40,019 nt of DNA from Escherichia phage Evi, in the sequence record LR597642; one strand, given 5' to 3'. The position numbers are program-made. Shown piece after piece: positions 15,001-18,000 of this stretch (position 1 is the first letter of the stretch; every line of letters starts with the position of its first letter).

Positions 15001-18000
15001 ATAAAGGTTTGTCAGGTACGTCAGCAAGCCAAACACCAGGCTACCCAATACACCTATTGCCACCCACTGGGATGGGGAGACTTTGTCCAGCAACTGCAGT
15101 AGCCAGTATCCCGTCCCCACCGCTGACGTGGTGTATGACACACCTGTTGTGATTTTTTCCATCTGGTACATACCCCGTCTCCCGTTATCCGGAAGCTGAC
15201 AACAATAAAAAGCCACCAGTTAATTCCTGATGGCCCTGATGCATAAACGTCATAATACCTGACTGTTATGATTGACAATAATGATAATGTTTATATAGAA
15301 AGGTTCCCGATATGTGTTACATATCATTTCTCCACGGGGAATATCCCCACGCCAGCGCAGACTCTTTTACCCGTTCTCTTCTGCGCTGGCTCTTTTTTTA
15401 TTATGCTGCTGCATTTACCTCTAGCACTAAGCTTTTTATCTCAACACAATACGTGGTACTTCGTGTAACCAATATCATAACGATTAATCGACATCGAATT
15501 TCTCCCGTGTACAGGAACAGAGTTAAAAAGCCGGAATCAAATCGCAGGATGAACATCTGCCAGTAACAGGGTGTAAAAAAAGGCCGCGCCATGCGCAGCC
15601 GGAAATAAAGGGATAACGATGATAGTTTGAGAAAAACAGAAATAACACTTTTGTTGCAGTGCATGGTGCCGGGTGCCTCCCGGTGAATTCAGCCGGTGTC
15701 ACTGAACCCGCGTCGGCTTGCCTATAACATAATAAATGCTACCTACACCAGTCGCCCCTCCGCACAGGGGGATTCACCATGCAGAAGTGTTTTTAATAAA
15801 CAGCAAACAAAAAAATCAAGCATTATGCAGGCTGTTTCTTTTTATCACCGGCCACAGCAATACCACAATGCCGCAGACCAGCACCCCATCCGCCAGCACC
15901 GACATGATTCTGCTGGTGAAATCCACCATCACCACCAGAAACAGCAGGAGTGCAGCCACAGCCAGGCGCAGTTTTACCGTCACAGGTGATTCTCCAGACG
16001 AAGACCCAGAACACCGGCAATCTCTTCCAGCACCTTGCGCTCTTCCGGCTCAATTTCGCCGTCTGCCTCCGCAATGGCCACCGCCACATCCAGCACATCT
16101 TCCGCTTCACGCGTATCGTGTTTCACATCCTCAATCTCGCGTAACGCGGCACGACGACCAATTTTAAAATTGGTATCCAGCTGACCGATAATAGTTGCGC
16201 TAATCGCATTAATTTCCGAGGTAAACGCAGACAACGCAGGCTGATTACGTAAGACCTGTTCGATCTTCGCTTTCTCGGATGCCTCGCATTCACCATCTGC
16301 ATAGGCCACCAGGTATGCAGCGTTAATCACCGCCTGTGCCAGATCGCGTTTCTCAAACTTTTTAATTTCCGCTGCCGCTCTGCGGGTTTTCTTTTTGAAG
16401 ATTCCAAACATCGTGACGTTCCTTTGGGTGGGTGAGCCAGCACTCAGGAATGATCAGCCCACAGAGACAGTCACACCGACCGTTCCCTATGGCTCCCCCC
16501 CCCCCTGAAAGGCTCTGTGGTTGATATGCGCCGGGCGTGGCGCAGATACAAAAAAGGCCCGCAAAAGCGAGCCGGGAAAATAAGTGTAGCGCGTTGTACT
16601 GGAGTCGAACCAGTGACCGATTGCTTAGAAGGCAATTGCTCTGTCCTGCTGAGCTAACAACGCAGAATACCGATAATGGACCACCATCGGGGACTCGAAC
16701 CTCGTACACTCAACTTAAAGGGTTGACGCTCTTTCCTGATGAGCTAGTGGCGGTTGGTGGCCCTTGCTGGATTTGAACCAGCGACCTGGCGATTATGAGT
16801 CGCTCGCTCTCACCACTGAGCTAAAGGGCCGGGCGGAGGATAATAACGTTACGAAATCAATGTTGCAAGCATTCAAAAATCACCTGGTTAAAAATCACCC
16901 TTACCTCCTCCACCAGCGCATTCACCATGTCTATCCGAGATAAGTGGCACAAAAAAACCCGCACGGGGGCGGGTTGTAAAAAATCTTTTAACGCCAGGCA
17001 TAAAACGCCCATCGTTAGGACAAATTTACCACAGATTCGGGAAAAATCAACAACACTATCGCGTTACCCTCTTCAACTGCCGCTCCGCCCATGACTCTTC
17101 AATGTCAAACCGAACCACCAGCGTATCGTAAAAACGCTTCACTGATTTTTTCCACGTATCAAGAGTGATAGCGCTCGTCACTTTGCATATGGCATTAAAC
17201 GCCTCTGTTGACGGCAATCTTTCATAGCCACGACCACCACAACGCTGGCAGTCTCTGATAACAGGCATACCACGTTTTACCGACTCTTCACGATGAATGG
17301 CGACACCACGCCCACGGCAATCCTTACAGGCGGTGGAGACCTCACCCTTTCCCCCGCATTCAGGACAGGCAACTTTTACCACTTCCCGGACTTTTTTCCA
17401 TTCTTCCCAGTAAGACGGATACACACCCTTTGTACACTTTGCCCATACCGGCGGTTTACCATCCGGATACTGAACCTTGTTTGTAAAAACCTCGCTTTCA
17501 ATAAATTTTTCCCCTCGGCAACAAGGGCATTGCTTTTTACTCGCTGCGCTGCGGGCATAATCCTCAAAAGCATACGAAGCCATAATGCGCATCACTGCCG
17601 GTTTTATTTCTGCCGGAAGCTTTCTTAACGCCGCCACGCGATCGCACTGACTTAATGCATAATCTGCCAGTAATTCTGTTGCCCGCGCCCTGTCATTCAT
17701 ACTAATGCCCATTTTCCCCAAGAACGCAGAAAACCCCATCTCAGCCCGGTTTTGTGTCATACCCTGCGCAGCCATCACATCAGTGATGCTCAGCGCATCT
17801 TTTGATGTCGAGGCGGACGCATCAGTCAGGTCTGGCGATTTCGGGGAATAGTATTTCGGTAAATCTTCCAGTCTCATTTTTGGACCTGCCCGTCATGCAT
17901 TATTTCGTAAATCTTCACGCCCAACCGACCACCAGGAACAGGCAGTCCGCGCACAATATTAATTTCATCAAACTGCTCGTCGTCGATAAGCAACCCCGCA

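Follow-up and report, generated by a model that had tools for sequence, protein, structure and literature searches.

Does an uninterrupted run of 11 G residues upstream of tciA, a gene of the TerB family in Escherichia phage Evi (sequence record LR597642), serve as a length-dependent control element, or is it a by-product of mutation in the DNA that precedes the gene? The window analyzed here is the whole stretch of 40,019 nucleotides (nt) in which the run was noticed. On the plus strand, the run is C11 at exactly 16495–16505, where an earlier note on this DNA had placed it approximately, and it is thus G11 on the minus strand, which carries all genes near the tract. The tract is intergenic and outside any open reading frame (ORF). 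As the earlier note had described, it is situated between the terminator of a tRNA array (stem at 16573–16556) and a TerB-like gene, whose product matches Pfam PF05099 with E=2.9e-16. The distance between the tract and the ATG of tciA (16411–16409, minus strand) is, however, 83 nt, not the approximately 85–95 nt given in that note. A run count of the window shows no other G or C homopolymer of 7 residues or longer. By chance, 0.015–0.021 C runs of at least 11 residues would be expected in the window (first-order Markov or independent, identically distributed bases) against the one observed, and G11 is therefore far beyond chance. The uninterrupted run is also long enough to be slip-prone, about 8 residues or more being needed for slippage at a contingency locus made of a simple sequence repeat (SSR).

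The positions corresponding to the tract in homologous loci should be noted, since they indicate how the run arose. About 150 homologous loci were compared overall, and all the run lengths compared below are at the level of assemblies, not of reads. A flank-gap-flank pattern randomly returned 120 loci from IMG/VR, which, together with six other sequences, give 126 alleles. The motif is interrupted in 90 of the 126 alleles, reading G4-T-G or G5-T-G. The type A form is CCTTTC-A-G4-T-G-AGCCATAGGG, and the type B form is CCTTTC-G5-T-G-AGCTTACGG; the motif is deleted in three alleles. Pure G runs are restricted to the alleles in which the interrupting T has been replaced by G or lost. One T to G change would give a minimal pure run of G7 in type B and of G6 in the flank type of the window, exactly the shortest ones observed there, while a separate type-B lineage with G6 fits deletion of the T. 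Runs of G8 or more are found in only 3 of the 120 randomly returned loci, and a second scan, for runs of 7 or of 8 and more, gave only 14 loci in all IMG/VR. With most of the alleles interrupted, the repeat is not maintained as a repeat across homologous loci, although such maintenance would be expected of a contingency locus. Judging from these sequences, the interrupted motif is the common state and G11 is the derived one.

The length of the pure run is hypervariable. Within otherwise identical flanks of ~190 nt, it differs in at least four haplotypes among the IMG/VR and complete-genome loci: type B has G7, G8, G10, G11, G12, G13, and G14, type A', to which the window belongs, has G6, G8, and G11, type C has G7, G9, and G10, and type C' has G7 and G8. 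Complete genomes were surveyed with a 212-nt type-B query containing G12, which matched 901 E. coli records. In an evenly spaced sample of the ranking, the alignment spans of 207–216 nt correspond to G7 to G16, with the mode at G10–G12. By this sample, roughly half of the 901 records have a copy with G8 or more, and these are mostly of enterohemorrhagic E. coli (EHEC) serogroups. Eight of the sampled genomes were fetched and their sequences were checked directly. Five O157:H7 genomes have G14 (EDL933), G12, G11, G10, and G9, respectively, with 0 mismatches over 150 nt of the left flank and 250 nt of the right flank. Such near-clonal differences in length between identical flanks, here read from assemblies, are what a contingency locus would display. 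Copies of the O26/O111 type, in which tciA has an internal stop, have G9, G12, G15, or G16. The slippage-prone nature proposed in the earlier note is supported by this comparison, with G9–G14 in O157:H7 and G7–G14 among the IMG/VR isolates.

The haplotype of the window behaves differently elsewhere. By sequence, its exact copies in L001, L116, and the metagenome contig L271 have G6, and the alignment spans in eight complete genomes from chickens also correspond to G6 in this haplotype. In RM14723, from a dog, the span of the same haplotype is 1 nt shorter than the G6 span, as read from the alignment span and not from the sequence. The G11 in the window thus appears to be a private expansion or a miscount. 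Overall, the length seems to be stable in short runs and unstable in long ones. Length-dependent instability is the expected behavior of replication slippage, and the pattern therefore fits slippage as the probable mechanism.

The tract is held in a conserved non-coding leader of ~140 nt (16412–16549, minus strand), which was delimited by homolog alignments and extends from the T run of the terminator to the ATG of tciA. The mean column identity of the leader in the alignment is 85% across phages of E. coli, Klebsiella, and Enterobacter. In the homologs, which include L006–L136 and L258–L262, the leader is always located just after an intrinsic terminator of varying sequence. In several phages (Klebsiella phage 1 LV-2017, LMessi), this terminator is tR' directly after the antiterminator gene Q. 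The first ~100 nt of the leader also precede other late cargo, namely, a tRNA with its own strong promoter or an ORF of 63 amino acids (aa). No second copy of the leader was found in the window, and no published mention of the tract or the leader was found in literature searches. An Rfam 15 scan of 15900–17100 gave no family on the minus strand of the leader at E values up to 5, only the tRNAs passing the threshold. The overlaps below the gathering cut-offs are at chance level: Six3os1_3 (17 vs 40 bits) is on the opposite strand, and AaHKsRNA20 (21.2 vs 43 bits) mostly covers the tRNA and the terminator. In the window, the tract is downstream of the putative late promoter pR', of the tRNA promoter, and of two terminators. 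This architecture suggests that the tract is part of the conserved leader of a Q-dependent late transcript and that transcription passes through it. The leader could be an undescribed cis-acting late-leader RNA.

Part of the leader is also observed in unrelated phages, the Erwinia jumbo phages Asesino, Caitlin, and ChrisDB, in which only the last ~35–50 nt (GCTGGCTCACCCACCCAAAGGAACGTCACGATG, the C-rich segment and the ribosome-binding site) are shared, upstream of terB. This observation suggests that the C-rich segment before the Shine-Dalgarno sequence travels with the terB gene. A genome-wide pattern, CCACAGAGCC-N20-50-TCTCTGTGG, was too loose to be useful for finding leaders, mostly returning unrelated inverted repeats from metagenome-assembled genomes and only three true homologs (L174, L186, and L256). 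One of them, L186 (NZ_JAVHZE010000077.1), is a 700-bp contig that contains the enterobacterial leader and the start of tciA in an actinobacterial assembly, 'Kocuria sabuli', and is probably a contamination of that assembly.

Can the length of the run gate transcription, and is the count of 11 real? A homopolymer of 9 or more residues upstream of a gene, polymorphic in length, is the usual signature of a promoter spacer, and the earlier note had proposed phase-variable expression. In its classical form, where slippage would turn transcription from a tciA promoter ON and OFF, this proposal is not supported, with no promoter around the tract, no ORF containing it, and mostly interrupted homologs. 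A consensus scan found no sigma-70 −35/−10 pair between the terminator and the ATG, and reading by eye gave no TAnnnT hexamer from the tract to the ATG in the two main flank types; the tract is therefore not a promoter spacer. Furthermore, the leader directly follows tR' in several phages, so that it would be supplied by late transcription, and the run lengths are continuous from 6 to 16 with no optimum spacing evident. We regard switching through a promoter spacer as highly improbable. Nor is there a conserved ORF crossing the tract, and the run is thus placed neither inside an ORF nor by promoter elements, where the repeats of contingency loci are expected. A candidate antisense mini-ORF (ATGATCAGCCCACAG... 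on the plus strand) was rejected, since its AGGA stands immediately before the ATG, and the other flank type, with GCGATC, lacks this ATG.

The count of 11 could alternatively be an assembly or sequencing artefact, the true allele being shorter, for example G6. Several sequencing platforms are known to handle homopolymers poorly, and long-read assemblies miscount them. Every other inspected copy of the exact haplotype has G6, the alignment span in RM14723 being 1 nt shorter still, and draft contigs end or break at the tract, as L129 does in an abnormal G-rich tail. Contrarily, G11 is also found in L061, a contig from an independent isolate that shares the downstream flank, and G8 in another, L115; errors of +5 are unusual, and runs of G9 to G16 occupy the homologous site in many complete genomes that are independent of each other. 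A miscount in the window is accordingly rather doubtful in our estimation. The caution in the earlier note that the tract could be a sequencing-error hotspot is fair, as two draft contigs end or break there, but the range of 9–16 across many independent projects exceeds what polishing noise alone would produce.

On balance, we favor the reading, with moderate confidence, that G11 is a derived run at a mutational hotspot prone to slippage, within a late leader that is conserved, and that it has no dedicated regulatory role. The starting point would be a short interrupted G-rich motif, A-G4-T-G-AGCC, in a non-coding, probably structured leader ahead of tciA-tciB. Loss of the interrupting T would create a pure G6 or G7: a T to G change would give G6 in the flank type of the window and G7 in the other type, and deletion of the T would give G6. 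The pure run would then drift in length, presumably by slipped-strand mispairing. The tract would be transcribed within the late transcript from pR', possibly also by read-through from the tRNA promoter; tciAB are the first cargo genes of the late operon, in the position of stx in Stx phages. The tract length would most likely have no dedicated role, or at most a modest effect on the translation of tciA through pairing within the leader RNA. The run is taken as a by-product because a pure run is absent from most homologs, because long tracts persist upstream of tciA pseudogenes, that is, without a working gene, and because the tract is not placed where its length could gate transcription. The pseudogenes are found in O26/O111-type EHEC (L002, L268, L269, and L270), where the tciA following the long G run is annotated as such with an internal stop; the O157:H7 copy of tciA is intact (WP_001303509.1).

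Whether the length could act after the start of transcription depends on the structure of the leader RNA. A structured leader is plausible, and would consist, in one model, of the hairpin P0 and the candidate stems P1, P2, and P3, all on the minus strand. The hairpin P0 (GCGCC-ACGCCC-GGCGC, 16528–16543) is at the 5' end of the leader, with 98.5% of the alignment cells paired and one-sided changes only. The 5' arm of P1 (CCACAGAG, 16513–16520) pairs with CTCTGTGG at 16459–16466 as a perfect 8-bp complement, and P1 is invariant in alignment A1, partly by construction, the 5' arm being in the search patterns. The 5' arm of P2 (16490–16499), which is GGGTGAGCCA in the ancestral form and GGGGGAGCCA here, overlaps the 3' end of the tract. 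The 3' arm of P2 (TGGCTCACCC, 16430–16439) is the exact reverse complement of the ancestral GGGTGAGCCA over 10 nt, and is followed by a second CCC at 16426–16428 (ACCC) and then by the Shine-Dalgarno sequence AGGA at 16420–16423. The 5' arm of P3 (GGGAACGGTCGG, 16476–16487) pairs with CTGATCATTCCT at 16446–16457; 86.8% of the cells are paired, and 4 of the 12 pairs have changes on both sides (for example, AU:12/GC:10 and AU:19/GC:4).

The T to G change that would give a pure run breaks the U-A pair of P2 in this model. UA is kept in 20 rows of the alignment and replaced by GU in 1, and 5 rows have no pair here; in type C, the pair is restored as G-U by a change from A to U in the opposite arm, a single event. 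RNAalifold gives a fold incompatible with the P0/P1/P2/P3 model, with 98% of the cells paired and one covarying pair. Both models keep more than 94% of the pairs, several double changes are found in P3 only, and the covariation rests on five or six independent lineages, too few to decide between the folds. Thermodynamic support for a structured leader was sought but not obtained, the minimum free energy (MFE) of the single sequence being no better than those of shuffles (z = −0.04). In standard folding, the mean unpaired probability of the Shine-Dalgarno sequence is 0.63 for G4TG vs 0.47–0.58 for G5–G16; the effect of length on its accessibility is thus predicted to be small.

These features nevertheless admit the idea of a simple-sequence rheostat, in which the length of the run tunes the expression of tciAB after transcription start. 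The tuning could proceed through a leader stem between the G run and the C-rich CUCACCCACCC 5' of the Shine-Dalgarno sequence, through a two-tetrad RNA or DNA G-quadruplex from 11 residues, or through pairing with a C/U-rich small RNA (sRNA) as for RepG. We judge both the rheostat and these routes to be unlikely, though several observations speak for them, some of which also weigh against the by-product reading. The tract shares bases with a candidate stem of the leader, and the partner arm of this stem lies directly against the Shine-Dalgarno sequence: the ancestral arm is a perfect 10-nt complement of a cis C-rich candidate, TGGCTCACCCACCC, beside it, and the T-A pair has become G-U in type C by changes on both sides. 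When G-quadruplex energies are included, the MFE switches at exactly G11, from −61.5 to −70.0 kcal/mol. In this folding model, G11 is the shortest run able to form a two-tetrad G-quadruplex, and the leader from G11 on refolds around the CCACAGAG/CTCTGTGG stem. The allele in the window fits the canonical G-quadruplex motif, G3-N1-G3-N1-G3-N7-G3. A leader repeat of 6–16 G residues with graded control is a precedent (PMC8295292), and the length is hypervariable among near-clonal strains here. The main point in favor is that G9 or more persists across the whole O157:H7 sample and that long runs are common in EHEC; selection for a tunable tract could be the reason for this persistence. A further point against the by-product reading is that homopolymer sequencing errors may account for some of the length differences between assemblies.

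The points opposing the rheostat are as follows. Most homologs are without a pure run, and long tracts also precede tciA pseudogenes. The accessibility of the Shine-Dalgarno sequence changes only a little in standard folding, the fold of the whole leader is no more stable than that of shuffled sequence, and the covariation comes from few lineages, with two incompatible folds scoring about equally. To our knowledge, E. coli relies hardly or not at all on simple-sequence contingency loci. A fuller version, in which the length-variable G run tunes an undescribed structured late-leader RNA by a stem, pseudoknot, or G-quadruplex at the Shine-Dalgarno sequence, giving graded amounts of TciA and TciB, and is maintained as a rheostat in EHEC, seems to us quite improbable.

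The surroundings of the hotspot form the late region of a lambdoid prophage. Along the minus strand, this region comprises, in order, a DUF968 gene, RusA, Q, the putative pR', tR', a promoter-like site, three tRNAs, the terminator, the leader, tciA, and tciB, followed by DUF1327, a P21-type holin (PF04971), and a lysozyme ORF at 13751–14284. The Q antiterminator gene is at 17056–17877 (Pfam PF03589, E=6.9e-51). tciA (15980–16411) is an intact ORF for a TerB-family protein of 143 aa, with a PF05099 score of 60.2 bits vs a gathering cut-off of 24.4. The tciB-like gene (15816–15983) encodes a DUF3927 protein of 55 aa (Pfam PF13064) and overlaps the stop of tciA by 4 nt. RefSeq and GenBank name the homologous genes TerB family, TciA, and TciB. 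As expected of cargo in the stx position, tciAB are located between Q/pR'-tR' and the lysis cassette on the same strand, and the annotated homologs have the same order.

The putative pR' and tR' occupy 16956–17050 (minus strand). The promoter, read by eye, would consist of TTGATT at 17050–17045, a 16-nt spacer, and an extended −10 element, TGgTAAATT, with the −10 at 17028–17023; tR', at 16975–16956, was found by a terminator scan. The segment 16949–17050 would yield a terminated RNA of ~65 nt, a counterpart of the lambda 6S RNA and StxS. Its sub-threshold Rfam matches, Trp_leader (E=0.047) and isrK (E=1.7), probably reflect mere resemblance of terminator hairpins. A sigma-70-like promoter at 16868–16840 (minus strand) stands ahead of the tRNA array (16589–16830, minus strand), which comprises tRNA-Met/Ile2 (CAT), tRNA-Lys (TTT), and tRNA-Arg (TCT) by tRNA calls and Rfam. 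The middle one, tRNA-Lys(TTT) at 16677–16753 (minus strand), scores only 37 bits in Rfam vs 68–72 for its neighbors. Its place corresponds to that of argN in the Stx-phage array ileZ-argN-argO, and it may be a copy that has diverged or undergone an anticodon shift. The intrinsic terminator after tRNA-Arg (16550–16573, minus strand) is GGCTCGC-TTTT-GCGGGCC followed by T6, with the T run extending from the stem to 16550.

Among 5,426 complete E. coli genomes compared with 13500–20500 of the window, none exceeds ~94% identity or 80% coverage. Since no complete genome is more than ~94% identical over the 7 kb, a near-isogenic comparison for the prophage of the window is impossible. Locally, over the 400 nt that surround the tract, the identity to poultry isolates is 98.5%. 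The late region at 13500–20500 thus appears to be a mosaic without a representative in the complete-genome set.

Insertion sequences (ISs) are also observed at the G-rich motif. In L257 (LC567818, Stx2_14040/PPompW; locus 3540–5014), ISEc20 of the IS110 family interrupts the locus precisely at the 3' edge of the motif, with the junction ...CCTTTC-G7-TG/CCCCTATTAAGTTGTCAAGC. Beyond the IS, PPompW lacks the remainder of the leader, tciAB, and the lysis genes. In L132 (8295–8420), the junction is ...CCTTTC-G9/CCCCTATTAAGGTGTCAAGC, and an ISEc20-like end follows the tract. The G-rich motif may be a preferred target of IS110-type elements.

As a hypermutable homopolymer, the tract is mildly notable for its presence in E. 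coli and in hundreds of EHEC genomes. The range from G6 to G16 among near-clonal EHEC genomes offers a useful natural example of what is probably length-dependent slippage despite working mismatch repair, and hundreds of sequenced pathogens have the site. Assembly and variant calling in EHEC prophages can be expected to run into trouble at the tract, which evolves fast and could serve as a marker when O157:H7 is typed on a fine scale. The tract also points to a conserved, unannotated leader, located in non-Stx lambdoid prophages where Stx phages have stx, and this leader may merit its own study. If the length did tune tciAB, prophage late cargo would be linked to stochastic heterogeneity; if, further, a rheostat were maintained in EHEC, it would be an SSR-based contingency mechanism in E. 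coli.

Among known systems, the homopolymeric-tract contingency loci of Neisseria, Haemophilus, Campylobacter, and Bordetella have poly-G/C in promoters or ORFs. The tract resembles them in being a G/C run of 9 or more by a gene, polymorphic among close isolates, with slipped-strand mispairing as the best explanation. Unlike them, the tract is neither between promoter elements nor in an ORF, its pure run is a minority allele derived from an interrupted motif, its host is E. coli, which has proficient mismatch repair, and it has no known ON/OFF phenotype. G-quadruplex motifs also occur in bacterial 5' untranslated regions (5' UTRs), two-tetrad ones being marginally stable. The allele in the window is similar to these in that it fits G3+N1-7 four times on the RNA-like strand and would form a two-tetrad G-quadruplex from G11; it differs in being a prediction only, and in that the motif is confined to expanded alleles.

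The leader of the tlpB-hp0102 mRNA of H. pylori carries a variable repeat of 6–16 G residues, which is the target of the sRNA RepG and gives graded control (PMC8295292). A strain-variable G run upstream of a start codon is common to both leaders, the one here being presumably transcribed and having a candidate C-rich partner. However, the repeat in H. pylori stays a repeat across strains, whereas the tract here is usually interrupted, and the partner there is a trans-acting sRNA, whereas the candidate here, CUCACCCACCC by the Shine-Dalgarno sequence, is in cis; no trans-acting sRNA was identified here, none having been looked for. The closest likeness in gene order is with the late region of Stx phages, which has Q, pR', tR', the ileZ-argN-argO tRNAs, stx, and the lysis genes (PMC6266700, PMC7547250). 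Both have Q, a short terminated pR' transcript (putative here), a tRNA array, cargo, holin, and lysozyme, and the tRNA segment of the window is 92–94% identical to those of Stx2 phages. The cargo in the window is, contrarily, tciA/tciB, of the TerB family and DUF3927, in place of stx, and it follows the conserved ~140-nt leader in which the G run has expanded.

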